From NCBI GenBank assembly GCA_048938005.1, contig JBHLMQ010000041.1:1-27536 (forward strand): DNA of 27,536 nt, in the 5' to 3' direction. A model generated the notes under the pieces. It did no database searches and was not told the origin of the DNA. It saw only the letters and a list, made by a program, of their open reading frames with translations. Each line of letters starts with the position of its first letter. Within the stretch, counting starts at the first letter, position 1. The translations under genes and the position numbers were made by a program. The stretch is from Promethearchaeota archaeon. Its GTDB lineage: Archaea > Asgardarchaeota > Lokiarchaeia > Sigyniarchaeales > SOKP01. This document shows positions 1 to 17,558 of this stretch, in pieces.

Positions 1-608
1 CTTAGAAATAGATCTATAGTATTTATCCTATCATATAGTTTATAAAAGAAAGGTCTAATCTTTTGGAGTTTAGGACTATAAGTAACTTCATGAATCAATA
101 TCAAAACCATTTCATTTCTTTTACAAAACAGAATCAGTGGCAATAATTGTGTTTCGTAGAACATATTTAACAAAGCTGAAATATTCTTTGGATTACTACA
201 TCGCGTAAGCTTATACCTTAGATGATAAGAGATATTATCAATTACAATATACTTTAAGGAGGGGGGAGTGATAACAAGGGGATTAATTATTTTTTCAATG
301 ATTGAGACTTGTTGTTCATAGGAATGAATTGGTTTTTTCTGAGGAATAACATAAATATTATTTTTAAGATATTCTAATTTCTTATTCTGCCCCTGAAATA
401 TTTGAGTTAAACGCTTACGAGAAAAATGTTCACTTGCCTGAATCCAAATACATGAATCTGTAAAAGGGTGTTCATAAGTTAGAAGTGTCCCAGCTAGTTG
501 AACGGCAAGAGTAGTTTTACCGATTCCTGATTCACCTGAGATAGACACAATATTATGATACGAGAGTAGTTTTTTAATCCCTTCAATAAAATTAGCTTCC
601 AAAAGCAT
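1..608 (-). CDS. RecA/RadA-superfamily ATPase, RadB/Rad51-paralogue-like (3' end outside the window)
   Basis: Not in the ORF track. Hand translation from ATG at 608: MLLEANFIEGIKKLLSYHNIVSISGESGIGKTTLAVQLA...CIWIQASEHFSRKRLTQIF...LKYIVIDNISYHLR...VLILIHEV. Walker A is GESGIGKT and Walker B is YIVIDNIS. There is no N-terminal HhH domain, as in RadB-type paralogues. It starts 1 nt after the stop of 610-951. Confidence 0.8.
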   Translation of the reverse strand, partial: MLLEANFIEGIKKLLSYHNIVSISGESGIGKTTLAVQLAGTLLTYEHPFTDSCIWIQASEHFSRKRLTQIFQGQNKKLEYLKNNIYVIPQKKPIHSYEQQVSIIEKIINPLVITPPSLKYIVIDNISYHLRYKLTRCSNPKNISALLNMFYETQLLPLILFCKRNEMVLILIHEVTYSPKLQKIRPFFYKLYDRINTIDLFL

Positions 609-609
609 T

Positions 610-951
610 CTAATCGTCTTCCAGTAAATCAAGTACTTCCTTCTTTATCTTATCGATGTGTTGTTCATGTTCTTTTTTCTTCTCATCTCTAGTTTGATTA
701 TCACTATTTTGAGAAGAAGAGTTCATTAATTGCTGAATCATCATTAAAGTGATGAGATCATCTATTTTACTCTCTTGCTGAGGCTGTTTTCCACTTAGAA
801 ATCCAAAAACACCCCTTCCAGAAGAAGATCGAGATTTGAAAAAAAGATAGACACCTATAAACAAAACAATAATAATAATCGCATACACAGGATTTTGCTG
901 ATAGAACACAAAAAATCCAATTATCAACACAATATAACAGAAACCCTTCAT
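610..951 (-). CDS. Small membrane protein of unknown function (N-terminal TM hairpin, charged helical tail)
   Basis: 113-aa ORF with two hydrophobic N-terminal segments. It is closely spaced between the peptidase and RadB-like genes. An AGAGGT SD-like motif lies upstream. Confidence 0.7.
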   Translation of the reverse strand: MKGFCYIVLIIGFFVFYQQNPVYAIIIIVLFIGVYLFFKSRSSSGRGVFGFLSGKQPQQESKIDDLITLMMIQQLMNSSSQNSDNQTRDEKKKEHEQHIDKIKKEVLDLLEDD

Positions 952-3578: not shown

Positions 3579-6464
3579 ATGAAGTTAAAAAAATACACGT
3601 CTGCTTGTATTATATTAATAATTTTTAGTTTTAGTGGTTTAATCTTACAAGATTTTCATAACATAAATAGCTACTCTAATACCAATAACAATGCATATAC
3701 CCCTCAATTTCCACAATCATCTTCAAATAGAGAGATTATTGATTCAATGTTTAATTATAAAGTATTTGAGTATTATGACCTTGGTTATTTTAATCAGATT
3801 TATGAATCTTCATTGCAGGCAACATATTATGCCTTATTCATTCTTGAAGCCATAGGAAAGCTAGGTCAGATTAATCAAACTGAAATAATAAATTATATTA
3901 TGTCTCATTATGAGCCAAGTTCACATAGATTCATGGATTCGTTAGCTTATCGATATTTGGATACAGATTTTTCTCAGTTTTATTACCCTCTAAGCACAGT
4001 ATTAGAGGTTACATGTTATGCCATACTTTCCTTAGATATATTAAATTCCTTGCATCTAATAGATTCCCAAGAAATGATTGATTTTATCTGGAGTTGCTAT
4101 AATCAGATTTCAAGTGGATTTATCGGGCAACCGTACGATTCCGGGTTAGAAGATGGATTTAAGGTTGCGACATCAGATAACACATACTTTGCTGTTCAAA
4201 CACTTGATTTACTTATGAACGATTGGTTGGGATATTCAACTCAAAAAGATAAAATCATTCAATTTGTTAATAATTTACAATTAACTGGAGGGGGTTTTAT
4301 AAATGATGAAAATACTGCCATTGACACATTAAATCCTCTTTTTGAACCGAATTTATTAGCTTCATATTATTGTATAAAAACCTTACAAATCTTTGGAATG
4401 GAAGGAAGCATACGAATTTCAGATTTCAACCAATTCCTCAATGATTTATATGATTTGAATCAAAATTATTTCCGAATTTCTCAATGGGATTATGGTGTAA
4501 ACTATACAAACATAGTCGCAACGGCGGTAGGATTGGAACTTTCAGATATTACTAACTACGGAAATATAGATAGAAATGCTACATTATCATTTATTTTAGA
4601 AAATCGAAACTTATTTGGAAATTGGGATCAATCAACTACAGTAAACCATCATGAGCTCATTGATGCCTTTCAGATTATCCGTTCATTAAAGAATGTTCAA
4701 GAACTATCACAGTTAACATTAGAAGATAAAAACCAAATCGGAAATGCTACACAGCTTTATTACCAAAATAATGGTTATTCTCATCTTTCAAACGATTATA
4801 CTTCTATAAATCTTATTCATACACTCATAAGTTCTTTCAACTTATTTGATAGAACATCAGAATTAAATGTTCAAGCATTCTACGCCCAAATAAAAGATTC
4901 TTATATTCAGACATTTACTCAACCATTTGCCAATTCTTTTGCAGGATATTTAATAAAATCTCCTGATTTTGTTGGATTGCGTTCTCATCCTATTGAGTAC
5001 TACACTACAGGGAATAAAGATTACATTGATAAGATATCTCAACTGTATTCACATAAGTCTACTTTCTTAGCATTAAAATCACTGAAAACATTATTTAAAT
5101 TAGATGATTTCGCTTTGGAGTTTGATCTATTAAACCTTGTTAATGATATTTTAGCTACGCAATTTTTGAATGATACCTATTATGAGCTTTTTGGGGCATT
5201 TACACCGTTATGGTTTTACCAAGAAAATCGTTCTGAATATTTGAGTAAAAAGATCTTCTTTGAATATTCATATTATGCAATACGGTGCTTAGAACTTCTA
5301 GCTGAAGAATTAGAGTTAGGAAGTATAACTGGCCTAGGTTTCGATACAACTGCACTATACAATTATATTGATAGAAATATTATCGAGACTCCTACAATGC
5401 TTTATTTCAATCCGAGATATACAAATAATGTTGAGACGATTTTAAAGAATACCTATTTTATGATCTATATTTTGCAGGCAATTAATTTATTTAATAGAGA
5501 TAGTCAGAAAATCAAGAATTTTGTAATTTCTAGTTTGGATTACACCAATATTGAAAATGTGTATTATAGCTATAAAATCTCAAAGATCTTGGATTTAGAT
5601 ATCGCATTTGATATAAATTTAGTTCAAGAATTGGTTCAAGTTATCTATTCTGAGGAATTTCATGAATTTTATCTCACACCAAATCAGGAGGTTATAGATC
5701 AAGAAATATTTTTGTGGGTCTGTGATATGGCTCGAAATAGTAATATCGGAATTGAGGCTCATTACTCGAATAATGTGCCTTTAGGCGGTGTAAATCGAAT
5801 GCATGCGTCTCTCTATAATCTTATAATAAGAGATTTTGGCACATATATCAGCTTTAAATTTGAAAGCGATCAAATCGGCACGTATGTATTTACTAAATTA
5901 CCAAACAATACTTATGTAGCAGATATTCCAAATCCAATAAGTTCTATGAGTTATCCTGAAATTTCAGGAATTTTATGTGCATATGAAGGACAACAGAAAA
6001 AAGCAGAATGTCCCATATCGTTTTCTACTACATATGAGTTAAATTATGAGATTAAAATAGAAAAAACGCCAACCTCAATACTATTTTCAGTAAATAGCTC
6101 AATAATATCTAATGAAAAATATTATCCATTAACAGTTGGAGAAGCATATGTTCATATCATTAAAAATGGAAAAATTATAGAGACCAAGCAGTTCTCACTT
6201 CGAAATTCCAGCGAAGATTATAGTATATTTACCCTCACCTACACTCTACCAGATAAAGGAGTTTATGAATTTGAGTTATATCTTGATGATGGAATACAAG
6301 ACACTCCCATTCTAATACAGAAAATTACATTTTCAGGCAATCAAAATAATATGCAACAGATCATGAGTGCAATTCCACTGACAATTGTATTAATATCCGT
6401 CCCTGGATGCGTGATCATCGTCTCATCAAGACAGATAAAAAGAACTCGAAAAGAATTAAAATAA
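3579..6464 (+). CDS. Secreted, C-terminally anchored prenyltransferase/squalene-cyclase-repeat (alpha/alpha barrel) protein
   Basis: N-terminal signal/TM segment. Repeated motifs ATYYALFILEAIG, TCYAILSLDIL, NTYFAVQTLDLL, QLTGGGF and ASYYCIKTLQIFG. Beta-rich C-terminal region, then a TM helix and basic tail. Confidence 0.75.
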   Translation: MKLKKYTSACIILIIFSFSGLILQDFHNINSYSNTNNNAYTPQFPQSSSNREIIDSMFNYKVFEYYDLGYFNQIYESSLQATYYALFILEAIGKLGQINQTEIINYIMSHYEPSSHRFMDSLAYRYLDTDFSQFYYPLSTVLEVTCYAILSLDILNSLHLIDSQEMIDFIWSCYNQISSGFIGQPYDSGLEDGFKVATSDNTYFAVQTLDLLMNDWLGYSTQKDKIIQFVNNLQLTGGGFINDENTAIDTLNPLFEPNLLASYYCIKTLQIFGMEGSIRISDFNQFLNDLYDLNQNYFRISQWDYGVNYTNIVATAVGLELSDITNYGNIDRNATLSFILENRNLFGNWDQSTTVNHHELIDAFQIIRSLKNVQELSQLTLEDKNQIGNATQLYYQNNGYSHLSNDYTSINLIHTLISSFNLFDRTSELNVQAFYAQIKDSYIQTFTQPFANSFAGYLIKSPDFVGLRSHPIEYYTTGNKDYIDKISQLYSHKSTFLALKSLKTLFKLDDFALEFDLLNLVNDILATQFLNDTYYELFGAFTPLWFYQENRSEYLSKKIFFEYSYYAIRCLELLAEELELGSITGLGFDTTALYNYIDRNIIETPTMLYFNPRYTNNVETILKNTYFMIYILQAINLFNRDSQKIKNFVISSLDYTNIENVYYSYKISKILDLDIAFDINLVQELVQVIYSEEFHEFYLTPNQEVIDQEIFLWVCDMARNSNIGIEAHYSNNVPLGGVNRMHASLYNLIIRDFGTYISFKFESDQIGTYVFTKLPNNTYVADIPNPISSMSYPEISGILCAYEGQQKKAECPISFSTTYELNYEIKIEKTPTSILFSVNSSIISNEKYYPLTVGEAYVHIIKNGKIIETKQFSLRNSSEDYSIFTLTYTLPDKGVYEFELYLDDGIQDTPILIQKITFSGNQNNMQQIMSAIPLTIVLISVPGCVIIVSSRQIKRTRKELK

Positions 6465-6562
6465 AATATACTCAAATCTTTTCTTTTTATTTTATTAAAA
6501 AATTAAGTGGTTGATGCCCCTAACTTCAAATTCTAACAACTCTGAAAAAAAAAAAAAAGTAG
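6282..6562 (+). repeat. Left copy of a 281-bp diverged direct repeat
   Basis: Aligns end to end with 9267-9547 (offset 2985). It covers the last 60 codons and stop of 3579-6464, the spacer, and a remnant of the start of the 9496-10128 gene. Confidence 0.95.
6545..6558 (-). terminator. T14 run, candidate terminator of the fibre gene
   Basis: A14 on the + strand, about 24 nt downstream of the 6582 stop on the - strand. Confidence 0.45.
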
Positions 6563-6581
6563 TAATTTTAATTAAATATTT

Positions 6582-9077
6582 TTATTTCCACTTTTTGCGT
6601 CTCAAATAAGTTATCACAGATAATACCCCTGTTGTTCCTAATACGATTAAACCTACCATAAATAAATCTGGTAATGGAATACCAGGGGGGGAACTAGTTG
6701 TAAATGTCCACGTTGAAGATTGAGTTGTACTTAACCCATCATCAGCTATAACGTACCATGAATATTTCGTACCAGGTGAGAGTCCCGACCAGTCTACTGA
6801 AGCTGTACCAGTTCCACCTGTAATAATGATTGAGTCTATTAAACTATCATCTGAAGCATCATAAAATGATACGGTCAAATCATCCCCATCGTTATCAAAT
6901 ACATCCACACTTAATGTAGGGTTGTAACCAATATTGCTAGCCCCATCATTAGGAGTTGGATTTGTTGGAACATTGGGCGCGTAATTTGTAGTAAATGCCC
7001 ATGTAGCAGATTGAGTCGTATTTAACCCATCATCAGATATTACATACCATGAATAAGTCGTACCACTTGAGAGTCCCGACCAGGTTACAGAAGCGTCACC
7101 GGTACCCCCTAAAACACCATCAGTATCAATTATACTATCATCTGAAGCATCATAAAATGACACGGTCAAATCATCTCCATCGATATCAAATACACTCACG
7201 CTTAATGTAGGGCTGTAATTAATATCAGTAGCCAAATGATTAGGAGTTGGATTTGTGGGAGCATTGGGAGCGTAATTTGTAGTAAAGGACCAAGGATCAT
7301 ATTGTAATACAGTTAATCCATCATCAGCTTTTACATACCATGAATAGGTCGTACCACTTGAGAGTCCCGACCAAATTACTGTAGCTGTACCAACTCCACC
7401 AACAATATAATCCCATCCAATCAGAGCATCTGTAGCATCATTATAAAACGACACGTTCAAGTTATCCCCTTCTAAATCATTTACATTTACACTTAATATA
7501 GGGCTATAGATAATATCCGTAGCTCCATCTTCAGGAGTTGGATCGGAGATAGCCCCAATCTTTTGCATATAAATGAGCTTAACATAAGGTGGAATACTAT
7601 TTGCATACGAAGTATAACAAGTTGCATAACCTGTAGGATTTAAGTTATGAGCATGAGCAGCTGGACCTGCATGTGTGGTGTCTAGAACCCAATTCGGTGC
7701 CACATCACAAAAAGTACCGATCCCCCCAGGTGCAGTTTCTTGTGAGGAACCCCGCATATTATAGGTGTGTGCATGTGTCATAGGATCAGTAGGAATAGAG
7801 TGTGTATGTTGGGGAACCTCTCTATAGATATGTTGATGAGTGGCAGACCCACCAACACTTCCAGGTTGTTCTCCATCTGTTACACCTCTTGGAAATCTAT
7901 TAAGCATGTCAGGAGTATTATTTGTTCCATTGCATTGATTCCAACCTGCGGGTATGTTCGCTATTGAATCTCCCCACATACTAATAACTCCCATCGGTAA
8001 TGCATTGGTTACTACTGTATTCATTATGAACGCAACCTCGAAATAGGGGGGTAAATTGTCTGTATTCTCAGTTGTACAAATCGCTTGTCCAACGTAGGGT
8101 ACAGAATGTGTGTGAACTACATCTTCAGAACTAGTTAGGCCAGTTGTAATTCTATAAGAAGTAGGGTTTAATATCAGAGCACCTACTGTCCTGGCCAACC
8201 CACCATCCATGTCATGGTTATGAGAGGCATCAGCAGAATCAATAGAATGGCGATGACTAGGAATTTCCGTATATGTATGATTATGGGCTACAGTTCCACC
8301 TAATGTCCCAGGATCATCTCCTGGAGGGGCTCCCCGAATGAACCTATCTCGAAGATCAGGAGTTCCGTGGAATCCATCACAAATTGCCCAATCTGCAGGA
8401 ATGTTATTTATGTCACCTGCCCACATTACAATCACCCCAACAGGAATAACAGGATCATTTGTCTCCTTCTCGATAAATGCCAACTCGTAATAGGGTGGGA
8501 TGAGGTTTTCTTGTTCAGACATATAAAGAAGGCCTGTTCCACCTGTATAGGTGGTATAACCACCATGATTATGCGGTGTAGCTGTAGTACCAGTGGTGGT
8601 AGAATATATACTATAACCGTCGTATGGAATGGACGGCCAAGGCTGGCCTCTAGTATAGTAAACATTTGGTCTCATATAGGTATGGTAGTGCGAAGCGCTT
8701 GTCGTACCAGTTACACCATGATCGTGGTAAGGAACTGTATTGTAAGTATGATTATGTGATGTACTACCACCTGTGGATCCAGGTAATTCTGCACTATCAG
8801 TGCTATAAACAAAAAGATTAGTTGTATTTATTGTGCCACTGGTACCATCACACAGTTTCCACCCAGCTGGGATTGTATTTAAGGGTCCAGCCCACAATGC
8901 AATTATGCCAGTGGGATCATATTCTGTACTAGTTCTTAGATTATTGATTTGGTTTTTACGAATAGATCCAGGATTCATCTGGAAGGTAAGGGTAAAGATT
9001 AGGGTACAAAGTATTATTGCGCTTAGAAATTTTATATAATTTTTTTGATTTTTATACATTGGAAAAACACCTTTCAT
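6582..9077 (-). CDS. Cell-surface protein: signal peptide, 3x phage tail-collar/HxH fibre units, 3x Fn3/Ig-like repeats, C-terminal TM anchor
   Basis: Three collar motifs (PTGIIALWAG..IPAGWKLCDG; PVGVIVMWAG..IPADWAICDG..TPDLRDRFIRGA; PMGVISMWG..IPAGWNQCNG..TPDMLNRFPRGV). Each is followed by 4 HxH motifs and closed by N-x-PPY...(F/Y)(I/M). Then three 97-aa repeats containing W-SGLS-GT-YSWYV-x-DDG and the tail GIP-TM-RRKKWK. The start may be the ATG at 9059, which follows an AAGGTG SD-like motif. Confidence 0.88.
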   Translation of the reverse strand: MKGVFPMYKNQKNYIKFLSAIILCTLIFTLTFQMNPGSIRKNQINNLRTSTEYDPTGIIALWAGPLNTIPAGWKLCDGTSGTINTTNLFVYSTDSAELPGSTGGSTSHNHTYNTVPYHDHGVTGTTSASHYHTYMRPNVYYTRGQPWPSIPYDGYSIYSTTTGTTATPHNHGGYTTYTGGTGLLYMSEQENLIPPYYELAFIEKETNDPVIPVGVIVMWAGDINNIPADWAICDGFHGTPDLRDRFIRGAPPGDDPGTLGGTVAHNHTYTEIPSHRHSIDSADASHNHDMDGGLARTVGALILNPTSYRITTGLTSSEDVVHTHSVPYVGQAICTTENTDNLPPYFEVAFIMNTVVTNALPMGVISMWGDSIANIPAGWNQCNGTNNTPDMLNRFPRGVTDGEQPGSVGGSATHQHIYREVPQHTHSIPTDPMTHAHTYNMRGSSQETAPGGIGTFCDVAPNWVLDTTHAGPAAHAHNLNPTGYATCYTSYANSIPPYVKLIYMQKIGAISDPTPEDGATDIIYSPILSVNVNDLEGDNLNVSFYNDATDALIGWDYIVGGVGTATVIWSGLSSGTTYSWYVKADDGLTVLQYDPWSFTTNYAPNAPTNPTPNHLATDINYSPTLSVSVFDIDGDDLTVSFYDASDDSIIDTDGVLGGTGDASVTWSGLSSGTTYSWYVISDDGLNTTQSATWAFTTNYAPNVPTNPTPNDGASNIGYNPTLSVDVFDNDGDDLTVSFYDASDDSLIDSIIITGGTGTASVDWSGLSPGTKYSWYVIADDGLSTTQSSTWTFTTSSPPGIPLPDLFMVGLIVLGTTGVLSVITYLRRKKWK
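6697..7545 (-). repeat. Three intragenic tandem repeats with 291-bp period (Fn3/Ig-like stalk)
   Basis: GTCGTACCACTTGAGAGTCCCGACCA is identical at 7057 and 7348. AGGAGTTGGA recurs at 6951, 7242 and 7533. Confidence 0.92.
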
Positions 9078-9119
9078 TTTTATTAAATTAGATTTGCCTA
9101 AAAAATATATGAACCAAAG

Positions 9120-9165
9120 CTTATAAATGTTACAAAAATGTTCAAAAAATAATAAGTGTTACAAA
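9120..9165 (-). promoter_or_regulatory. Candidate TATA box with upstream TGTTACAAA direct repeats for the fibre gene
   Basis: TTTATAAG on the - strand at 9120-9127. TGTTACAAA on the + strand at 9128-9136 and 9157-9165. Confidence 0.3.
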
Positions 9166-9266
9166 TTAAAATTCTCGAAGATAAATTCCAGATTATTAAA
9201 TTGGAGATATGAAGATCCCTGTAATAGTGTATATGATTGCAATAGTAGTATTAAGTTTTCGAAATC

Positions 9267-9449
9267 CTTGATGATGGAATTCAAGACACTCCTATTCTAA
9301 TACAGAGTATTACGTTTACTGATAATCAAAATAATATGGAACAAGTTATGTCTGCAATTTCACTAACAATTGTATTAATATCTGTATCTGGATGTGTGAT
9401 CATTGTCTCATCAAGACAAATAAAAAGATCTCGGAAAGAATTAAAATAA
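9267..9449 (+). pseudogene. Orphan 3' fragment of the 961-aa gene (its C-terminal anchor region)
   Basis: Open frame LDDGIQDTPILIQSITFTDNQNNMEQVMSAISLTIVLISVSGCVIIVSSRQIKRSRKELK*, 52/60 identical to the C-terminus of 3579-6464. No homology is visible upstream of 9267. Confidence 0.8.
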
Positions 9450-9547
9450 AATACTCTCAAATTTTTTCTTTTTATTTTACAAGAAGATTCAGTAGTTGAT
9501 GACTCTAACTTCAAATTCTGGCAACTCTGAAAAAAAAAGTAAAGTAG
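9267..9547 (+). repeat. Right copy of the 281-bp diverged direct repeat
   Basis: Matches 6282-6562, with 25 differences in the 183-nt coding part by hand count. Confidence 0.95.
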
Positions 9548-10128
9548 CACATCAGAACACTATCCAATTGTTACATCATATTATCAATTACTTAACAGAA
9601 TTTGAAAATCATTACGGAAAAAAATTTAATGTGTCCAAATTAGCTGGATTGTTAGGGCTCTCTAATGGAGAAATTGATGAAATAGTCTCTTTATTATTGA
9701 ATTTTCAAGAAATATTTACAGGTGTCTTTAAAAACTATAAATTAAAGAAAATCAGGGCAGGAAATCAATTGTATTTAATCTGTATTAAGAAAGAATGGAT
9801 GGCCTCAAAAGAAATAGAAATTCCTGAAATTGTCAGATTTTCCACCTCACAGCTTAAATTATTTAATGATATTATTTATGTATTTAAATTTGTTAAAAGA
9901 GGTAAGGGATTTGATGTATCTAAGAATGGCTCTGACCTCCTAACTAATATTAGACGGCTAAGAACAGAGCATCCATGTTTATTTACATCACATGATTACG
10001 GAATTATTTACCCCTCTGAATTTGGATTAAAATTAGGGGAATTAATCATCTCTTACAACAAAAGTAATAAGGAAATCAAGGAATTAACGGTAGATAATTG
10101 TATAATTGAGGTTCTAAAAGATGGGTGA
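9496..10128 (+). CDS. Hypothetical protein with probable winged-helix/HTH domain(s)
   Basis: 210-aa ORF with the HTH-like segment FNVSKLAGLLGLSNGEIDEIV. It overlaps the Hef start by 8 nt. The start is TTG 9496 or ATG 9499. Confidence 0.65.
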   Translation: MMTLTSNSGNSEKKSKVAHQNTIQLLHHIINYLTEFENHYGKKFNVSKLAGLLGLSNGEIDEIVSLLLNFQEIFTGVFKNYKLKKIRAGNQLYLICIKKEWMASKEIEIPEIVRFSTSQLKLFNDIIYVFKFVKRGKGFDVSKNGSDLLTNIRRLRTEHPCLFTSHDYGIIYPSEFGLKLGELIISYNKSNKEIKELTVDNCIIEVLKDG

Positions 10129-12286
10129 AATAAAAGAAGATATTGCAGAAAATTCCTCGATTTTGAATTCACATAAACTTGAAGTTAGAGAATACCAAGT
10201 AAAGATTGCTGAAGAATGTATAACCAAGAATTCATTGGTCGTGTTGCCTACTGGTCTTGGAAAGACTATAATTGCCGTATTAGTCGCAAGGAAGATATTG
10301 GAATTATTCCCCCCGAATAGTAAGATAATCGTACTTGCTCCGACAAGACCATTAATAAACCAACATTATGAGACTTTTGTGAGATATTTAAAGATACCTG
10401 AGGAAAAATTCGCAATTCTAACAGGTAAAATTCTTCCTGAAAAAAGAATTGATATTTTTAATCATCATCAAATCCTTTTTTACACTCCACAGACTTTAAG
10501 AAATGATTTAGTAAACAAAAAGTATACATTACAAAATACTGCACTTGTCATTTTTGATGAGGCTCATCACGCCTCTGGAGATTATGCTTATACTCTAATT
10601 TCCGATGAGTATATCGATCACAATCCAGATGGTATCACACTTGGATTAACTGCATCACCAGGAGCATCAAAGAAAAAAATTATTGAATTATGTAAAAACT
10701 TGCATATTCCAACAAAAAATATTCATATTAGGACTCGAAAGGATGAAGATGTTAAAACATACCTTAAACCGATGGATATCTACAAAATAGGAGTCGACCT
10801 AACAAGTTTGATGGAGGATGTGTACCAAATAATTACGCTTGTATTAGAGGAACGTCTACATTACCTCTCTCAAATGAATTTCCTAGAAGCGAAAGGCGAA
10901 CATTTACATACAAAGGTGATTCGAAAAGATTTGCTTAAATTGAATGGTGAGTTAGTAAATATTCTAAAAAGCAATGGAGATAAAACAGGAGTGTACAGTG
11001 CGCTCTCTATAAATGCTCAAGGGCTTATTTTATACCATATGCTAGAATTGGTAGAACAGCAGGGATTAGATGTTCTATTAAATTATTTAGAAAAGCTTAA
11101 CAAAGACGCAAAAAAGAAAAGTAGTTCAAAAGCAACGAAAATTTTAGTCTCAGATGGTCGTATCCATAGAATATATTTAGAACTAAAGAAAAATCTAGAA
11201 TTTTCTCCTGAGAACTTAATTCATCCTAAATATCAAGTTCTGATTAAAATTATTCTAGACGAAATACGCAATAATCCATCATCACGAATTTTGGTATTTG
11301 TGAAACTAAGGAACTCTGTTAAGAACATAACCAAGAAATTAAAAGAAATTTCTTTAATTAAACCGGTTCGATTTGTAGGACAAGCAACCAAATCGGAAGA
11401 TGATAAGGGTCTATCTCAAACACGTCAAATAGAGATTTTAGATCAATTTAAAGATGGTCAATATAATGTGCTTGTGTCTACGAATGTAGGTGAAGAGGGT
11501 TTAGACATCGCAGAGTGCGATTTGGTCATATTCTATGATGTTGTTGCTTCAGAGATTAGATTAATACAACGCAAAGGGAGAACTGCTCGTCATCGCGAAG
11601 GAAAAGTCGTCATATTATACGGTAAAGGGACTCGAGATGAGATATATTTGAAAATTACGTTGAATAAATTAAAAAGAATGAATGTAAACTTAAGGAACCC
11701 TCAACAATTAAAAGATTCCTATAATATTCAAGATTATAAAAAAGATAAAGTGCTTATACCTGATCATTCTACTTCTGGTGATGAGATGGAAATTAGAACA
11801 GTAATTCCATTAGATAAATCAAATCCAAAGAGAATTGTAAAAAAGCAATATCAATCAAGGCTTCAGAAATTCATTGATGTGAAACAAGAAGAGATTATAA
11901 GTCCTATTAAAATAAGTAAATTTATCCCAATGAAATTTGGGCTGAGAAAAAAACTTCAGAATGAAAGAATCTCATTTGATATAGCAGAATCTGACCTTCA
12001 TATTGTTGTTCATAATAAAGTGCTCATCCAAATTTATAATCCAGAAGGAATCGATTTTGATGAATTGCTTGCTGAAATAAATGATTTTAGGCAGATTTCT
12101 TCACTTGTTATCATAACATTAGATTTTATCGACTTTAGAGAGAAAATAGAGGGTGAAAAAAGAATTCTAAAACGTAAGATTCATGAATTTGCGAAAGAAC
12201 ATAATTTTCAAGCTATTGCAATTGATAATGAAGAAGAGCTATATTTTATTGTGAAAAATATTGTAGAAAGTCCGTATAGGGAGTGA
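10121..12286 (+). CDS. hef: Hef/FANCM/Mph1-family DEAH helicase with degenerate C-terminal ERCC4-like domain
   Basis: REYQ Q-motif, LPTGLGKT, LAPTRPLINQH, TPQT, DEAHHASGDYAY, GLTASPG, RFVGQA, TNVGEEGLDI and QRKGRTAR. Confidence 0.92.
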   Translation: MGEIKEDIAENSSILNSHKLEVREYQVKIAEECITKNSLVVLPTGLGKTIIAVLVARKILELFPPNSKIIVLAPTRPLINQHYETFVRYLKIPEEKFAILTGKILPEKRIDIFNHHQILFYTPQTLRNDLVNKKYTLQNTALVIFDEAHHASGDYAYTLISDEYIDHNPDGITLGLTASPGASKKKIIELCKNLHIPTKNIHIRTRKDEDVKTYLKPMDIYKIGVDLTSLMEDVYQIITLVLEERLHYLSQMNFLEAKGEHLHTKVIRKDLLKLNGELVNILKSNGDKTGVYSALSINAQGLILYHMLELVEQQGLDVLLNYLEKLNKDAKKKSSSKATKILVSDGRIHRIYLELKKNLEFSPENLIHPKYQVLIKIILDEIRNNPSSRILVFVKLRNSVKNITKKLKEISLIKPVRFVGQATKSEDDKGLSQTRQIEILDQFKDGQYNVLVSTNVGEEGLDIAECDLVIFYDVVASEIRLIQRKGRTARHREGKVVILYGKGTRDEIYLKITLNKLKRMNVNLRNPQQLKDSYNIQDYKKDKVLIPDHSTSGDEMEIRTVIPLDKSNPKRIVKKQYQSRLQKFIDVKQEEIISPIKISKFIPMKFGLRKKLQNERISFDIAESDLHIVVHNKVLIQIYNPEGIDFDELLAEINDFRQISSLVIITLDFIDFREKIEGEKRILKRKIHEFAKEHNFQAIAIDNEEELYFIVKNIVESPYRE

Positions 12287-12292
12287 TAGAGA

Positions 12293-12826
12293 ATGGAAGA
12301 GATTGCGTGGAAAACAGATAAGACTCCATATTTAGTGTTCCCATGTTCGAAATGTAAACAATACACCTATGCAAAAACTACGCGAAAAACTAAAAAATGT
12401 ACTCGATGCGGTAGGTCGCATATTGTAAGTAAAATTCTGAGTATTGGAGAAATTGTAAACGGCATTTCAGTAGCTGTAGAATTAGTAAAAAAAAGACAAG
12501 ATGAGTTAGCAATTAAAGAATTAGGTACTTCACCTGAATTTAGAACTATCAATGATTTTGCAATACTAAAATCAGTTAAGGGTAAAAGTCATAAAAAAGA
12601 AATTTTAGATAAAGAAGATAATGAGGAACAATACTACTCTAAATTCAAGCACATACTTATTGAGTTATCCAATATGTATTCGAAGTTTCCCTTCTATATT
12701 CTTGAAATGATGGCTGAAAATTATAACATCCCAAGCTCTGAAGTTAAACTGCTGGCAAACACTTTTCAGAAGCAGGGAATATTAATTAAGTTAGATGATA
12801 ACTTGTATCAGGTAAACATTGAATAA
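12293..12826 (+). CDS. Zn-ribbon (DUF1922-like) protein with C-terminal winged-helix-like domain
   Basis: YLVFPCSKCKQYTYA...KKCTRCGR. The C-terminus (FQKQGILIKLDDNLY) looks like a wHTH wing. It starts 6 nt after hef, behind a GGAGTGA SD-like motif. Confidence 0.7.
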   Translation: MEEIAWKTDKTPYLVFPCSKCKQYTYAKTTRKTKKCTRCGRSHIVSKILSIGEIVNGISVAVELVKKRQDELAIKELGTSPEFRTINDFAILKSVKGKSHKKEILDKEDNEEQYYSKFKHILIELSNMYSKFPFYILEMMAENYNIPSSEVKLLANTFQKQGILIKLDDNLYQVNIE

Positions 12827-12879
12827 AGGAAAAAAACCTAAAATGTTAAATATTCCCCCGTTGTAGTACGAATAAGAGG

Positions 12880-13836
12880 ATGATAATGCAACTTAAAGAA
12901 ATAGCAAAGGATGTATATGCCTGCTTACAGGAGGATAGGGGATTAGGTTGGAATAATGCTGGGTTTGTGAATCTTGGTGGTGGATTAGCTATTGATACGT
13001 TTTATGATTTGAATCTTACAATGCAGATGATCGAGCTCTATAAAACGGTATCACCTATACCAGCAGGACGACTCGTGAATACCCATCACAATGGCGATCA
13101 CACTTGGGGTAATCAACTTTTCCAAGATTCTGAGATTATTGCACATCGCCTGTGTGCTAAAGAAATGGAAAAAGAAAAAGAGCGTGATTCTCCTGGGACA
13201 TTCCAAAAATGGATACAAAATCCTGAGGTGTTTCCACCAGGAATGAAACAATTTGTAATGGCATTAAGTCAGTTTGACTTTTCAGGAATTGAGCTTACGT
13301 TGCCAAATCATTTAATCGAAGATAGACTTGATCTTGAACTTGATGGTTATCCCTGCCAACTTATTTATGTTGGCCCGGCACACACTTCTAGTGATCTAAT
13401 TGTGTATCTCCCCGAACATAGAGTCATCTTTGCGGGCGATATTGTCTTCTGTAAATGCACACCAATCGGTTGGGAAGGCACGCATGCTAAGTGGATTGAA
13501 GCATTAGATCTTGTGTGCTCCTTTGAGCCCGAGGTTATTGTACCGGGGCATGGTCCTCTCTGTGGTATTGATGAAGTGGAGGAGTTACGGGCGTATTTCG
13601 AGTTTGTATATTCTGAGGCCAAGCGTTTCTTTAATGAGGGACTTGATCCTCTCGAGGCATCGAAGAAGATCAATCTCGGACCTTATGCTGATTGGACGGT
13701 GCCAGAGCGATTATTCTTTAATGTTAACAGAGCCTATCGAGAGTTCCGAAATGTAGAACCCTGGGATGCACCCTTCGACGCATTAGACCTTTTCTATAAA
13801 TGCAATGAATTACGGATTCACTGGGATGGAATTTAA
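12880..13836 (+). CDS. Metallo-beta-lactamase-fold hydrolase (cyclase/glyoxalase II-like)
   Basis: NNAGFV, IDT, NTHHNGDHTWGN, PAHT, FAGD and VPGHGP motifs. Confidence 0.9.
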   Translation: MIMQLKEIAKDVYACLQEDRGLGWNNAGFVNLGGGLAIDTFYDLNLTMQMIELYKTVSPIPAGRLVNTHHNGDHTWGNQLFQDSEIIAHRLCAKEMEKEKERDSPGTFQKWIQNPEVFPPGMKQFVMALSQFDFSGIELTLPNHLIEDRLDLELDGYPCQLIYVGPAHTSSDLIVYLPEHRVIFAGDIVFCKCTPIGWEGTHAKWIEALDLVCSFEPEVIVPGHGPLCGIDEVEELRAYFEFVYSEAKRFFNEGLDPLEASKKINLGPYADWTVPERLFFNVNRAYREFRNVEPWDAPFDALDLFYKCNELRIHWDGI

Positions 13837-13883
13837 TGTAGACTCTTGATTAATATTTCTAAATTTCTTTCTTAATATGTTTA

Positions 13884-14108
13884 TTATAATTCTTGTAATG
13901 AATCTATAAATTCATTTCTTAAGATAGCTTGATAAATAGGATGTCTTTTTTTGAATGGAATTTTTTCATGGCCATAATAAATATAATCTGTAGGCTTGTA
14001 AAATTTAGAGAAGGGAATTATAATCTTATTGAAATTGAGAGGTTCCTCTAGCTCAATCTCTTGATCAAGTGTTTCTTGAATTTTTTTACCAATTGATTTA
14101 GAACTCAT
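13884..14108 (-). CDS. Small hypothetical protein
   Basis: 74-aa ORF with ATG start and GAGGA upstream. It fills an otherwise empty gap. Confidence 0.55.
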   Translation of the reverse strand: MSSKSIGKKIQETLDQEIELEEPLNFNKIIIPFSKFYKPTDYIYYGHEKIPFKKRHPIYQAILRNEFIDSLQEL

Positions 14109-14310
14109 GGTATCCTCACAAAATCAATATTATTATATTACAGTATGATATCGAAATTATTTAAAGAAAAATCCCTTTGGAATAACTTTAGGGTTTTTAG
14201 GTCAATCACTATTTTTGATAAAAATGTAAAATTTTAAATAGCTCGAAAGAACTATCATCTTCACCGAAATCTAATTAAAAATACATAAATATATAATTAG
14301 AATAATTGAG

Positions 14311-14745: not shown

Positions 14746-15024
14746 TTATTTATTTTCATCTTGCTCCCTTAATTTTTTAAGATAAAGCTTCATGAAATAT
14801 CGTTCGCTATTACAGAACTCTAGTTTTTGCTTTTTGGAAAGGTTAAAGCAATTCAATAAAATTGCATGGATTTTCTTAAGGGTAGTTAGATTCTCATCGC
14901 ACAATTCTTCAATATTCTCATCTATTAATTCAATAGATTTCTTTTTTTGGCTTAATAGATTTCTTGATGGTGATTCTGTTCTTTGAATTTTACTATAAAT
15001 TTCTTTTTTACTCTTAGAATTCAT
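14746..15024 (-). CDS. Small helical hypothetical protein coupled to the Hel308-like gene
   Basis: 92-aa ORF with an ATGA overlap on the helicase stop. Confidence 0.6.
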   Translation of the reverse strand: MNSKSKKEIYSKIQRTESPSRNLLSQKKKSIELIDENIEELCDENLTTLKKIHAILLNCFNLSKKQKLEFCNSERYFMKLYLKKLREQDENK

Positions 15025-17558
15025 TGTTTTTTATCTTTTTTTATGATTTTCTTACATAAATTTATCCCTAATCCCGTCTTTTGGTTTAGAACGTAAGGAT
15101 TCTCTTTCTTCACTTGAGTAGCGGTATGATACCCCGCATTATACAAGATTCGTGCTCTCACCCGCGCAACATCATTTAATCGTAGTACAAGATCGAATAG
15201 TTCTTCTCGAATTCCGTAATGCAATCGTATCTTTAATGTCTCGGACATCTCAGCCACTTTTGTCAACTTCTCTTGTAAATCAAAACCGTGTGTACTCAAG
15301 TTTCTCGCAATAATTCCAATAAATGTAATTATCCGTTCTAGATTATCTCTAACAGAAAAGAGGTCCCCTGCCATGATTTTGTATTTCTCTAATATTTGGT
15401 CAATCGGTTCCTCATCTGCCCACTCTAAAATTGGCTGGAGCATTTTATAATCTTTTACACGAAATTCTGATTTTAGAATATCAAACGATTCTTTAATTAG
15501 ATCTTGAAAATTATTAATTTCAATATTTTCAAGCTTATATCGGATTATTACACCAGAGACTGGATAAAGATACAATCTTATTATCAATTTTCCAAATTGA
15601 GAGCATTTAATTATTCCCTCATCGTCTTTCTTGATTAAACCTTTTTCGAATAAATATGAAAGAATATATTGATTCTTAACAGACTTAGGGATGATGGAAT
15701 CAACATATTTTTGAAAGTTGATATCGGGTAGTTGGATCAAATACAATAGAAATGAGGTTATATGATCGCAGAATTCAAAGGAAAACTCATCATATACAAA
15801 ATTATCGGATATCTTATTCTGAAATCCGCAAGTACAATGAATTCCTGTTTCAATATCAAACTGACAAAAGTAGACCCCATAAGAAGTCTTTACATAGCCA
15901 GAGATATTAGATTCATTGAATTTAGTTAGTTTTATAGAAAAATTGCTCTCTTCTAACAATTTTACCTTCTTTGCATCGGCATGAAGTTTTAAAATATTAA
16001 TTGGAGTAATTTCTTTTATCATTAATAGCTGTTCAATAGGAATCTTCTGCTCTTTCATTCTGTGTTTTATCCCATACCAAAAGTATGTCTTTTCGAAGAA
16101 TTGTTTTAGCTTCTCAAGTGTTATTTTCTTTTCTTCATAAATTCTCAACAACACCTGTTCTTTAAGTGTATTAATTTTATTTAACACTGAAGTTAAATCA
16201 TTATATCTCGGTATTAATTTTCCTTTAAGAGCCTGATTTTCAAAGAAATGATCCTCAACCCACATTTTTTCTTCTATATTTTGGGTTAAAATTATCCCAT
16301 ATCCGACTGAATCAAGCCCAGGGCGACCGGCTCTCCCTAAAATTTGGAATACTTCATTTGCAGAAAATGGTTTAAAGTACGAAAATCCATCCCCATTTTC
16401 ATGATACCCAGAGAAATTTTTGATATTATGACCAGATGTAATATATTTCTTAAAGTCCTTTAAAATAACTACACGGGCGGGTGTGTTTATACCGGCTGAT
16501 AATGTTGTGGTACAACTAATCACTTTAATAATTCGTTTTTTGAAATTATCCTCTATTAGTTTTCTTTCCTTTGGAAGCAATCCGGCATGATGGAATGCGA
16601 TTCCTGATTTAATAACCTTCTGCAAATCACGATGTCCACCCTTAATGGAGCTTAATCTTTTTTCCAATGATTTGCATACATTTGACTCATTATCTTCTAG
16701 AAACTTCTTTACAAGGTTTTTGAGATTTTCAGCTGATCGCTGTGCCCCTTTTCGCCTATTAACAAAAATAAGCACTTGCCCATTTTTTTTTAAAGTAAAT
16801 TTCACAAGTCTCTTAATGGCAGAATCCTTATTTTGCGTGACTTCAATTTTAAAATGGAGTGGTACAGGGCGATCATCCGATTTAATCAAGGTCGTTTTGT
16901 TTCCTAATGAAGATAACCAAGAATTGAAGAATTCTGGATTTGCAATTGTTGCTGATAAGCCGATTATTTGTGGATTATGTAAAAATTCATTTAACCGGAC
17001 AATTAAGGATTCTAATCTTGGTCCTCTTTCTGATTCGCTGAGAATATGAACCTCATCAATAATGACAGTGGAAATCTCAAAAATCCACTCTTTATCATAG
17101 AAATTCCTTAGTATTGAATCCATCTTTTCATAGGTAGTTACAATGAGATCTGCTTTTTCCAACTTAGAATCATCAACATCATAATCCCCAATCGATAACT
17201 CAACTTTTATTCCAAATCGGCTATAGCCTTTTTTAAAGTGAAAGTATTTTTCTGTGGCCAGTGCTTTATACGGAACTAAATAGATTGATTTGCCAAATTT
17301 TTGAAATAAATTATTAATAGCACATACTTCCCCAATTAATGTCTTTCCACTTCCAGAGGGAGCACATACCAAAAATGATTTCCTGAAAAATAGACCTTGT
17401 TTGATCGCATCTTTTTGAATTTCGCGTAATTGAAATATCCTTCCCTCGAAAAGCACACGTAGAATGCGCTTATCAAAAATGAATTTAAATATTTCCTTAT
17501 CAAGATTATTATCCATATTTTTTCTTTTAATTTTATCTGTAAAATCTGTTAACGTCAT
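15021..17558 (-). CDS. hel308: Ski2-like Hel308/HelQ DNA helicase with SWIM zinc-finger insertion
   Basis: APSGSGKT, VPYKALATEK, TTYEKMD, DEVH, RGPRLE, GLSATIAN, RPVPL, FHHAGL, TTTLSAGINTPA, QILGRAGRPGLD and C-terminal ARVRARILYNAG. Internal CTC-x19-CDH motif. Confidence 0.9.
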   Translation of the reverse strand: MTLTDFTDKIKRKNMDNNLDKEIFKFIFDKRILRVLFEGRIFQLREIQKDAIKQGLFFRKSFLVCAPSGSGKTLIGEVCAINNLFQKFGKSIYLVPYKALATEKYFHFKKGYSRFGIKVELSIGDYDVDDSKLEKADLIVTTYEKMDSILRNFYDKEWIFEISTVIIDEVHILSESERGPRLESLIVRLNEFLHNPQIIGLSATIANPEFFNSWLSSLGNKTTLIKSDDRPVPLHFKIEVTQNKDSAIKRLVKFTLKKNGQVLIFVNRRKGAQRSAENLKNLVKKFLEDNESNVCKSLEKRLSSIKGGHRDLQKVIKSGIAFHHAGLLPKERKLIEDNFKKRIIKVISCTTTLSAGINTPARVVILKDFKKYITSGHNIKNFSGYHENGDGFSYFKPFSANEVFQILGRAGRPGLDSVGYGIILTQNIEEKMWVEDHFFENQALKGKLIPRYNDLTSVLNKINTLKEQVLLRIYEEKKITLEKLKQFFEKTYFWYGIKHRMKEQKIPIEQLLMIKEITPINILKLHADAKKVKLLEESNFSIKLTKFNESNISGYVKTSYGVYFCQFDIETGIHCTCGFQNKISDNFVYDEFSFEFCDHITSFLLYLIQLPDINFQKYVDSIIPKSVKNQYILSYLFEKGLIKKDDEGIIKCSQFGKLIIRLYLYPVSGVIIRYKLENIEINNFQDLIKESFDILKSEFRVKDYKMLQPILEWADEEPIDQILEKYKIMAGDLFSVRDNLERIITFIGIIARNLSTHGFDLQEKLTKVAEMSETLKIRLHYGIREELFDLVLRLNDVARVRARILYNAGYHTATQVKKENPYVLNQKTGLGINLCKKIIKKDKKQ

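Follow-up and report, generated by a model that had tools for sequence, protein, structure and literature searches.

Several described systems leave marks like those of the locus reported here, an insertion between two genes, A and B, of an Asgard-type archaeon. In naturally transformable bacteria, homology-facilitated illegitimate recombination (HFIR) integrates foreign DNA through a homologous anchor together with a single illegitimate joint formed at a microhomology; according to the account in PMC5361080, which refers to de Vries & Wackernagel 2002, Prudhomme et al. 2002, and Meier & Wackernagel 2003, it needs no dedicated recombinase, is rare, and works between related lineages. As outlined there, HFIR and the present locus have in common the combination of putatively foreign DNA, a homologous anchor, and a microhomology joint, again with no dedicated recombinase. 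However, HFIR is an experimental finding in bacteria, whereas here a genomic footprint alone is seen, in an archaeon, and no donor-like relative was found; moreover, since the joint here lies within the anchor, the outcome is a duplication, not a deletion, of the target junction. The same source, citing Jackson et al. 2009, describes C-terminal displacement and orphan arrays in the Rhs, CDI, and T6SS effector–immunity loci. The likeness, within that description, is that a module brings a conserved gene end, the old end is displaced downstream and left dead, and diverged 3′ repeats surround the cargo; the arrays, which arise by repeated events, can be compared with the three B heads found in one relative (L036). 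In those loci, however, the toxin tips of one polymorphic gene are swapped, whereas here the junction of two unrelated housekeeping-type genes is concerned, and the cargo is independent and lies on the opposite strand.

In Asgard archaea themselves, aloposons have been characterized as mobile elements integrated at tRNA genes, with a conserved gene set as well as giant genes whose products have 3,000–6,000 aa (PMC8813620). The locus resembles them, as presented in that source, in that mobile DNA shuffles genes in Asgard archaea, but its identity with an aloposon was rejected, since integration at a tRNA gene, giant genes, and the conserved gene set are absent here. A literature search returned no paper linking illegitimate recombination with Asgard archaea, and, among the matches listed, nothing relevant on Lokiarchaeal hypervariable surface proteins with direct repeats or on archaeal tail collars.

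Prophages and islands can also sit in a gene and supply a replacement 3′ end, as e14 and phage 21 do in the icd gene of E. coli. There too, the gene remains functional because the element supplies a diverged copy of its 3′ end, with mostly synonymous changes. Those elements, however, have an integrase and fixed ends, neither of which was found here, and a defined att core, where no single core stands out in the present repeats. Finally, template switching during replication (MMBIR/FoSTeS) is classically recognised by microhomology and templated filler. The locus shares with this process the microhomology at a joint, a short templated filler from a second locus, and the duplication of the break flank; the difference is that copies made by template switching are identical at birth, while the codon pattern of a whole class of such loci and one of its members (C44) argue that at least some copies had already diverged when joined. 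To our knowledge, the mechanisms of gene gain in Asgard archaea are largely unknown, and we know of no genetics for this lineage; gene gain is a key element in explaining their large, mosaic genomes and the origin of eukaryotes.

The window, i.e., the whole stretch of DNA analysed, comprises 27,536 nt (contig JBHLMQ010000041.1 of assembly GCA_048938005.1). The features that matter for the insertion are collected in Table 1.

Table 1. Features at and around the insertion between genes A and B (window coordinates)
Feature	Position	Strand	Description
Gene A, 961 aa	3579..6464	+	Predicted secreted/anchored protein; prenyltransferase-like alpha-alpha toroid domain, transmembrane anchor at the C-terminus
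Left repeat copy	6282..6562	+	Functional 3′ end of A (6282-6464), spacer, dead 16-17-codon B start (6514-6562)
A14 run at left joint	6545..6558		Common to B EKK codons (A9 in right copy) and fibre oligo-T terminator (T10 in C60)
Cassette common to window and contig C60	6549..9173	-	C60 11531-14161, 92.7% identity, 2631 aligned columns (blastn)
Cargo gene, 831 aa	6582..9077	-	Predicted N-terminal hydrophobic segment, collar-like domains, fn3-like repeats, C-terminal membrane anchor
Fibre upstream sequence	9174..9202	-	29 nt, present in window copy and relative G019, absent from C60 copy
YhhN-family gene fragment	9195..9250	+	56 nt, internal, codons about 137-155; contains a stop codon
Filler between YhhN fragment and right repeat	9251..9266		Unassigned; read from sequence
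Right repeat copy	9267..9547	+	Dead 60-codon 3′ fragment of A (9267-9449), spacer, real B start
Gene B, 210 aa	9496..10128	+	8-nt overlap with the start of the next gene
Hef-like SF2 helicase gene	10121..12286	+	Member of conserved block downstream of B; Pfam helicase domains

A preceding sequence-only reading had proposed that diverged 281-bp direct repeats duplicate a gene junction here, and this holds: the two copies align over 281 nt without a gap, with 40 mismatches (85.8% identity; repeat search and blastn), and their starts are 2985 nt apart. A search of the whole assembly (3.72 Mb, 101 contigs) returned these two copies only (E = 1.2e-144 and 3.8e-90), and the pair is thus neither a chance similarity nor a dispersed repeat. 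The content of the copies also bears out the proposed division of labour, in which the left copy, containing the last 60 codons of A, supplies the functional 3′ end of this gene, and the right copy supplies the functional start of B (TTG 9496 or ATG 9499) along with the spacer that is the site of the working B promoter region. In the right copy, the reading frame of the A fragment has a TAA stop four codons upstream of 9267; therefore, this fragment is a dead 3′ piece. The longest run identical in both copies is 19 nt, with several runs of 15–17 nt scattered along the repeat, and the A-run near the end of the left copy is longer than its counterpart (A14 versus A9).

Within the A part, 25 differences fall on 180 nt (183 nt if the shared stop is counted), and a recount returned the same 12 synonymous and 8 replaced codons as before, with no frameshift or stop. 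The corresponding pS is 0.34 (14/40.8 sites), pN is 0.079 (11/139.2), and omega is 0.18; for this locus alone, the codon-pattern test gives P = 0.02–0.09, depending on the neutral expectation used. When polarised against 11 relatives, none of them close (the best homologues have at most 60% protein identity), each copy shows two derived residues, and four more are ambiguous. The dead A fragment has two serines where the left copy and the 11 relatives have invariant prolines, and these losses show decay, which is uninformative on the origin of the copy.

The neighbours of the insertion are conserved archaeal genes. Gene A matches Pfam PF00432 (E = 3.3e-13) and has homologues in 42 of 53 other genus genomes, while gene B, without a match in Pfam and NCBIfam searches, has homologues in 15 of the 24 genus genomes sampled. 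The product of the gene following B matches the Hef nuclease family PRK13766 of NCBIfam (E = 9.8e-167; 556 bits, under the 610-bit cut-off). A defence function of gene B was considered and rejected, as PADLOC gave only a 17.9-bit WH match and the next gene is Hef-like, not Hachiman. The nearest homologues of A and B show 48–60% protein identity among 54 genus genomes and in a metagenome scan (maxima in the genus genomes: A, 60%; B, 59%); the scan, made with B, returned seven loci with 48–56% identity, and neither source contained a donor-like relative of the locus.

In 12 of the 15 genus genomes with B, and at 2 of the 7 metagenome loci, A abuts B, so the A–B site is ancestrally empty, and the unit is, as had been suggested, an insertion into a junction contiguous in relatives. 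The check for an empty site or a different cargo at this junction was positive in both respects, since a PAS histidine kinase gene occupies the site in L034, and TPR-PRTase-CE and other genes occupy it in L036. The latter genome also carries two extra dead B 5′ pieces (84–89% identical), and dead B heads break at codon 17–18 in two distant lineages. Homologues of the inserted gene in G004 and G008 likewise have imperfect flanking direct repeats, the cassette is inverted between G004 and G057, and MBL and MFS genes are 87–91% identical between relatives that are otherwise about 72% identical.

The inserted gene encodes three tail-collar/tail-fibre-tip-like domains and three 97-aa fn3-like repeats, the latter corresponding to 291-nt tandem repeats at 6675-7543. 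Its product matches Pfam Collar PF07484 (E = 1.4e-8; 35 bits against a 24-bit cut-off), the tail protein family phrog_5795 in three stretches (E = 3.5e-50), phrog_8469 (E = 1.3e-35), and the PDB entries 9nxk (E = 1.2e-8), 6ov6, and 9qgo, with E from 1e-8 to 6e-7, where 9nxk and 9qgo are tail fibre chains. By these matches, it is predicted to be a tail-collar surface protein, the similarity to the phage tail collar/tail fibre tip family being significant, and it may function as an adhesin or in receptor binding. As for a viral origin, 13 pattern matches in viral contigs yielded no confirmed case with a method that detects close relatives only. A foreign composition of the gene was rejected: its GC3 (0.26) resembles that of its neighbours (0.24–0.28), and its 40% G+C is an amino-acid effect.

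The same genome holds a second copy of the cassette, on contig C60, and this paralogue too is flanked by a diverged duplicated gene end (about 12–14% diverged). The common part extends from 96 nt upstream of the start codon to an oligo-T run 33 nt past the stop. Because the 29 nt that follow in the window are absent from C60, the C60 copy in its present form cannot have been the template of the window copy. In the relative G019, the fibre gene lies directly beside YhhN, and MarR abuts the carbonic anhydrase gene; in L024, positions 9907-7728 align with 6988-9202 of the window. The 56-nt YhhN fragment is 87.5% identical to the intact YhhN gene (PF07947) on C60 and acts as filler DNA at the right joint. 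Conversely, the C60 copy retains a downstream flank absent from the window copy, and the ends of the two copies fall on different bases on both sides. From the YhhN fragment and the 29-nt upstream sequence in the window and the downstream flank in C60, it follows that both copies come from a YhhN-linked ancestor and that the cassette has no fixed ends. The A-run at the left joint, with the GTA after it, is a microhomology of about 12 nt between B and the terminator of the fibre gene. The non-coding and dead parts have diverged to a similar extent, by 14% in the repeat, 12.5% in the YhhN fragment, and 14.6% in the fibre promoter. The fibre copies of C74 and C60 share tracts of 180–360 nt with 0–1 differences, which suggest gene conversion within one genome.

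The bin is metagenome-assembled, with 7.2% contamination by marker count, and the left joint lies within a homopolymer masked in mapping; hence the idea that the structure is an assembly chimera of two co-occurring strains and exists in no single cell. This was checked with Logan contigs of four runs from four studies (88% likeness). A 1445-nt contig covers 8987-10200 with no difference in X1 and two in X3, and in X7 a contig of 686 nt spans 8987-9672. The right junction is thus bridged in three studies, one possibly the source sample, by single contigs with 0–4 differences that run from the 5′ end of the fibre gene through the filler and the dead A tail into B. On the left side, contigs of the same three runs align to 6541 and continue for 37 unaligned letters, with 6542-6570 masked in mapping, which implies that this junction is bridged as well. 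The mapping across both junctions that had been recommended is, accordingly, positive for the right one and indirect for the left one. An empty-site joint skipping the insert was not seen in the contigs of the four runs, which drop rare variants; the excision and the exchange of the A anchor proposed in the earlier reading are hypothetical. A and B each occur once in the bin, and the low-difference tracts of the two fibre copies speak for a single genome; a chimera is, in sum, highly improbable.

The locus is an insertion, with no integrase and no fixed ends, into an originally contiguous A–B junction. It had also been proposed that the unit is an att-like cassette, i.e., one flanked by att sites, without its own integrase, moved by a recombinase encoded elsewhere and bringing a replacement junction that restores its targets, as in some prophages. 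In its favour, the cargo lies between direct repeats that leave both neighbours whole, the site upstream of B has been occupied repeatedly, with dead B heads broken at nearly the same codon in distant lineages, and the G004 and G008 homologues have their own imperfect repeats. However, none of the 19 window ORFs belongs to an integrase or transposase family (Pfam), in agreement with the earlier statement that the window lacks an integrase, and a PF00589 family search found one tyrosine recombinase gene in the 3.72-Mb assembly, on contig C11. The short identical runs between the copies (19 nt at most), the differing ends of the two cassette copies, and the microhomology and filler DNA at the joints also speak against this proposal, as does the lack of a common core in 16 comparable loci with repeats of 75–281 nt: 9–11-nt k-mers across these loci did not exceed those in 200 random controls. 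An att-like cassette is therefore not supported and very unlikely. A transposon or insertion sequence was rejected as well, there being no transposase match and no inverted pair at the cassette ends, and a duplication of 281 nt here and 75–250 nt elsewhere. An integron gene cassette was also discarded, because the flanking repeats are coding ends of A and B, not a cassette-borne attC, and no integrase is nearby.

The comparable loci form a genome-wide class which, like the 92.7% paralogue of the cargo, was absent from the sequence-only reading. About 16 unique repeat pairs, 79–90% identical and 75–281 nt long (75–250 nt outside this locus), bracket one to six genes, often for surface proteins, and empty sites were found in relatives for 5 of the 5 class loci checked. 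The 16 pairs were chosen by eye from 130 BLAST pairs, so the pooled test of the class is not blind. Six of 20 hand-picked pairs (about 79% identity or more) were left out: C40, C59, C64, C4:1-577, and C5, which resembled repeats in or between paralogous genes or at contig starts, and C92, whose 75-nt pair is 93% identical and 12 kb apart. Pooled over 15 coding segments, synonymous differences amount to 104.5/331.8 sites and non-synonymous ones to 117.5/1300.2. Simulations of a purely in-situ origin yield a non-synonymous fraction of 0.59–0.66, above the observed 0.529 (P ≤ 0.015 for all 12 parameter sets). At locus C44, the repeat copy on the side of the cargo resembles G022 (90.3%), whereas its partner and the two flanks resemble G019 (Fisher P = 0.019); a tree constrained to sister copies is worse by 8.0 lnL units but is not rejected (AU P = 0.09). 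The tree of C9 is a near-trichotomy, in which the dead copy has 21 derived sites and the live copy 11, and at C60b the dead copy forms a long branch with two stops.

These data bear on a duplicative insertion in situ, by break repair or by FoSTeS/MMBIR-like replication template switching, in which the junction copies would be identical at birth and diverge later, the dead halves neutrally. In this scenario, a 3′ end that had stalled or been broken around codon 17 of B would have used an A/T-run microhomology to switch to the terminator of the fibre gene, at the YhhN locus in that cell, copied the fibre gene and briefly YhhN, and re-entered the A–B locus 281 nt behind the break. Such a single event needs no donor, and a source copy and the YhhN gene are both present in the genome; the microhomology joint and the 56-nt templated filler are as expected, although HFIR would leave the same marks. 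The 12–15% divergence of all dead and non-coding parts, the two prolines lost from the dead A fragment, the excess of derived sites in the dead C9 copy, and the long, stop-containing branch of the dead C60b copy also agree with decay after birth. On the other hand, the pooled synonymous excess rejects pure neutral decay of the dead halves, and the A part of the present repeats leans likewise; for 15 of the 16 cargo sets, the genome contains no close paralogue that could have served as a template, the exception being the window locus; and the cargo-side copy of C44 is nearer another species. A steady process should, besides, leave young pairs, yet none of the 16 exceeds 90% identity, with the reservation that exact repeats exceeding the word size of the assembler would break a short-read assembly. 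In-situ duplication is, on balance, a possible explanation and not a probable one; if correct, it documents gene duplication by template switching or break repair in an archaeal lineage without genetics.

The reading we tentatively prefer, while placing it somewhat short of probable, is an integrase-free recombinational insertion in which DNA of a related lineage was imported with the help of homology and one joint was illegitimate; the evidence for it is mostly that of the class. The integrated DNA would stem from a near relative among Lokiarchaeia-type lineages, diverged by roughly 14%, and would comprise the tail-fibre-like cassette, a scrap of its old neighbour YhhN, and its own copy of the A-3′/spacer/B-5′ junction. 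This junction sequence may have served as the homology, in HFIR or in a Campbell-type insertion-duplication, while the other end would have been closed by an illegitimate joint in the A-run common to B codons 11–15 and the fibre oligo-T terminator. A and B would both have stayed complete because the incoming DNA brought a second junction copy, and the dead A tail and dead B head would have been left over as the diverged 281-nt direct repeat. The footprint of such events, a microhomology joint beside a homologous anchor, is present, with about 12 nt at the left joint and the junction copy on the other side. That the second junction copy came from another lineage and not from the same chromosome, and the order of events, are what we infer from these features. 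Recombination with related-lineage DNA, as proposed earlier, is thus favoured mainly at the level of the class, the codon pattern of this locus alone giving weak support; taken by itself, the locus fits import and in-situ duplication alike.

Several observations stand against import. The window locus is the sole class member with a close cargo paralogue in the same genome, and the similar 12–15% divergence of its non-coding and dead parts fits one old in-situ event equally well. Searches for a donor-like relative yielded A and B homologues with 48–60% protein identity at best, and a donor with the cargo beside a junction copy needs an earlier illegitimate event anyway. At C44, the AU test allows sister copies, and the C9 and C60b trees are uninformative.

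With this locus and about 15 others, one genome offers a readable insertion scar composed of a diverged junction duplicate, a microhomology, and filler. If the scar marks homology-assisted import, acquisitions could be counted, dated by repeat divergence, and assigned to donors from sequence alone, and the bias of the cargo to cell-surface proteins would point to selection at the cell surface as a driver. A more general mode of recombinase-free gene gain in Lokiarchaeia-type archaea, by which cassettes move between related lineages with a junction copy through host homologous recombination and a microhomology joint, is doubtful at present. If it exists, the cassettes would mostly be surface protein genes with their promoter and terminator, each acquisition would be marked by a diverged junction duplication, and cassettes flanked by repeats could be released as circles that insert anew in relatives. 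It would also explain the genus-wide shuffling of cassettes seen in the inversion between G004 and G057, in the highly similar MBL and MFS genes, and in the hotspot upstream of B.

The direct repeat that flanks the fibre gene is real, and its content was correctly described in the sequence-only reading. Its two copies differ by 40 mismatches over 281 nt, without gaps, and the repeat occurs twice in the entire assembly and nowhere else (a metagenome bin of 3.72 Mb in 101 contigs with 30% G+C, in which the window is the complete 27.5-kb contig C74). The frame of the dead tail of gene A ends at a stop four codons upstream of the right copy, and the counts claimed for the A part of the repeat were reproduced (25 differences, with 12 synonymous and 8 replaced codons). 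Archaeal-type families in the window, which fit a Lokiarchaeia-type Asgard archaeon, include a Hef-like helicase, DUF1922, and archaeal helicase domain 4.

Features of the window and further repeat pairs of the same genome
Feature	Position	Strand	Size	Remarks
NB-ARC/STAND-type NTPase, N-terminal fragment	3-632	-		at contig edge, runs off
Gene A	3579-6464	+	961 aa	prenyltransferase-like toroid and C-terminal membrane anchor
Left repeat copy	6282-6562	+	281 nt	functional A 3′ end, spacer, dead B head of 16-17 codons
Fibre gene	6582-9077	-	831 aa	N-terminal hydrophobic segment, C-terminal anchor
Right repeat copy	9267-9547	+	281 nt	dead 60-codon A tail, spacer, functional B head
Gene B	9496-10128	+	210 aa	
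Helicase	15021-17558	-	845 aa	PADLOC HamB models, best E 2.7e-48; archaeal helicase domain 4
Further repeat pairs, about 15	contigs C4, C9, C20, C23 (2), C24 (2), C28, C44, C60 (2), C63, C65, C70 (2)		75-250 nt	

The junction of A and B is normally closed, and the unit that separates them in the window is an insertion. A homologue of A ends 50-290 nt 5′ of B on the same strand in 12 of the 15 genus genomes that carry B; in the remaining three, B is either at the end of its contig, on a contig of 3 kb, or separated from A by 21 kb. Among seven metagenome loci with B (48-56% identical), A and B are closed in two and split by other genes in two more (L034 and L036), while one has another gene upstream of B and two are too short to judge. 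The cargo of L034 is a 986-aa PAS histidine kinase, and that of L036 (400-5600) comprises a DUF4365 fragment, a 470-aa protein, and a TPR-PRTase-CE protein; PRTase-CE is a domain of the conflict-system type. Both an empty site and different cargo at this junction, envisaged from the sequence alone, are thus seen in relatives. The L036 cargo is bracketed by two additional dead B heads (18 and about 70 codons long, at 84-89% identity), so that the B 5′ end is present three times; none of the other loci among the 22 compared has such heads in the sequence covered. The spot just upstream of B is thus recurrently variable.

Contigs assembled independently from public sequencing runs X1, X3, and X7 (from three studies, possibly including the source of the assembly) were placed on window 5600-10200. 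On the right side, one 1445-nt contig spans 8987-10200 with no differences in X1 and two in X3, and a 686-nt contig of X7 spans 8987-9672; the 8987-10200 contigs lead from the fibre 5′ end through the filler and the dead A tail into B. Contigs of all three runs align on the left side up to 6541 and carry 37 further letters, the A-run being masked in the alignment, and bridging of the left joint is thereby implied. No public-run contig over 5600-10200 joins A directly to B.

The fibre protein combines three domains resembling tail collars or tail-fibre tips with three 97-aa fn3-like repeats; it matches PF07484 above the cut-off, phrog_5795 (E 3.5e-50), and the tail fibres 9nxk and 9qgo in the PDB. 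A foreign composition of the gene was considered and rejected: the amino acids encoded account for its high G+C, and GC3 is 0.26, like that of its neighbours. An intact second copy of 833 aa lies on contig C60, where 11531-14161 is 92.7% identical to window 6549-9173; the shared cassette begins 96 nt ahead of the start codon and reaches an oligo-T run past the stop. The counterpart of the C60 locus in the related genome G019 reads YhhN(−), fibre(+), two small genes, PNPOx, MarR, and carbonic anhydrase(−), with the fibre gene adjoining YhhN and MarR adjoining the carbonic anhydrase gene. On C60 the fibre gene is gone from beside YhhN; it has MarR on one side and the carbonic anhydrase gene on the other, and ahead of it lies a dead SPFH 3′ end of about 105 nt (86-90% identical, with a 4-nt deletion) whose source gene lies 4.2 kb downstream. 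The window copy keeps 29 nt of ancestral upstream sequence that is common to G019 and absent from the C60 copy; just beyond it come a 56-nt internal piece of YhhN, which contains a stop codon and is 87.5% identical to the C60 YhhN, and then about 16 nt of filler. The downstream flank retained in the C60 copy is absent from the window copy. Given the 29-nt tract, the YhhN piece, and the C60 downstream flank, both copies trace back to a fibre gene linked to YhhN, their end points differ, and there is no element with fixed ends. A putative 20-codon ORF (MKIPVIVYMIAIVVLSFRNP) at window 9209-9271 takes its ATG from a Leu-to-Met change within the YhhN fragment. A putative 37-codon ORF lies in the dead A tail (9336-9449).

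The left joint falls inside an A14 run (6545-6558). At this position, B reads A9 and then GTA, and on the other strand the fibre terminator reads TAC and then T10, so that microhomology extends over about 12 nt. The right joint consists of filler DNA. No integrase or transposase family was matched in a Pfam scan of 19 window ORFs, and a single PF00589 gene, on C11, was counted for that family in the whole assembly. No k-mer core beyond random controls is shared among 16 repeat loci of this genome (see below). The proposal that the unit is an att-like cassette thus fails on the lack of an integrase in the window, the differing end points, and the lack of a common core.

The locus exemplifies a wider, undescribed pattern in which this genome has gained genes with duplication of a junction. 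When the assembly was compared with itself, 130 same-strand pairs of 60-700 nt, 0.6-15 kb apart, were found within single contigs; of those with an identity of about 79% or higher, 20 were chosen by eye, and 14 were carried forward, which with C74 and the C60 fibre locus make a class of 16. Omitted were C40, C59, C64, C4:1-577, and C5 (apparent gene-internal or paralogue repeats, or at contig starts), and also C92. The 16 pairs are 79-90% identical over 75-281 nt, lie at gene ends, and enclose one to six genes; none of the roughly 15 further pairs, whose cargo is often surface proteins, exceeds 90% identity, and each of the 16 is unique in the genome besides its partner, with a weak paralogue match in three cases. 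Half of the cargo sets (8/16, judged by eye) encode proteins that bear a hydrophobic N-terminal segment, a C-terminal anchor followed by basic residues, or both, and the remainder include an MFS transporter, an esterase-like protein, and an MtaA-like/corrinoid pair, names that are a reading of the sequences. A close paralogue in the same genome was found for one set of the 16, the fibre. Empty sites, defined as two flanks overlapping on one junction copy in a relative, were confirmed at every locus checked, namely C74, the C60 fibre locus (in G019), C44 (at least 20 genomes), C9 (at least 12), and C60b (3). The C9 insertion (157241-157498) has as filler a dead gene fragment that shares 72% identity with C72 22525-22777 and 80-84% with loci in nine or more relatives; this filler parallels the YhhN scrap in the window. 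The MFS cargo of C63 (L044, 2756-4041) is 79-87% identical to genes on unrelated contigs of G003, G013, G069, and G066, and the genes flanking it have their best matches in other genomes, so that this region appears to be a gene-by-gene mosaic.

Integrase-free recombinational insertion, with import and in-situ switching taken together, is probably how the unit arose, and in this general form the recombination proposed from the sequence alone holds. Homology-assisted import, in which cargo and a junction copy would have come from a related lineage, is our tentative preference, at slightly less than an even chance. In-situ template switching, by which the junction was duplicated within its own genome, is a rather doubtful but serious alternative: the template for the window locus is in the same genome, and every dead part is about equally diverged (12-15%). 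The A part of the repeat has pS 0.34 and pN 0.079, and 11 of its 25 changes are non-synonymous, whereas a neutral in-situ simulation expects a fraction of at least about 0.59-0.66 of all changes (P 0.02-0.09); this codon pattern is suggestive, and no more, against neutral in-situ decay of the dead tail. Over 15 pooled coding segments of the class, a hand-picked and heterogeneous set in which some segments look neutral, the fraction is 0.529 (117.5/222; P <= 0.015 in 12/12 parameter sets). Of the 15 dead pieces, 7 carry stops or indels. The C44 copy on the cargo side shares 90.3% identity with G022 versus 84.3% with its partner, and the partner and both flanks are nearest to G019; site matches are 21 left and 9 right for G019 versus 11 left and 18 right for G022 (Fisher P 0.019), and a likelihood test of the copies as sisters gave an AU P of 0.09. 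Trees for C9 and C60b do not discriminate between import and in-situ copying. Against import, the dead A tail lacks two prolines that are invariant in 11 relatives, and no donor-like relative of the locus was found in the genome and metagenome collections searched.

Some prophages bring along a new 3′ end for the gene that they target; the window footprint resembles these in outcome but not in machinery. As far as the part of PMC5361080 consulted describes them, the window footprint works like homology-facilitated illegitimate recombination and is similar to the C-terminal displacement from which orphan arrays arise at Rhs and T6SS loci. Identity of the insertion with an aloposon was rejected on the part of PMC8813620 consulted. 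A limited search, covering articles without supplements, found no literature tying illegitimate recombination to Asgard archaea.

The fibre paralogues (window 6582-9077 versus C60 11627-14128) are themselves mosaic: codons 61-180 have one difference and 361-420 none, among codons 301-360, 14 are replaced and none differs synonymously, and among codons 421-480, 19 are replaced and 4 differ synonymously. This pattern suggests gene conversion together with diversifying change that falls in loops of tail-collar domains two and three. Imperfect direct repeats also flank the fibre homologues of G004 and G008 (about 220 nt at 75-84%; 50 nt at 92%). Between the same neighbours, the cassette is inverted in G004 (L021, C153, 7905-11060) relative to G057 (L022, C82, 54-3221), and it is 83% identical versus 74% for the flanks.

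Elsewhere in the window, the 845-aa helicase may be a Hachiman-like defence component or a housekeeping helicase. The metallo-beta-lactamase-fold gene (12872-13836) shares 88-91% nucleotide identity with genes on other contigs in G043, G017, G063, G046, and G067; the adjoining Hef-like gene reaches no more than 76% identity anywhere in the genus. With a GC3 of 0.36 versus 0.24-0.28 in its neighbours, the metallo-beta-lactamase-fold gene looks like a recent cassette-sized gene exchange.
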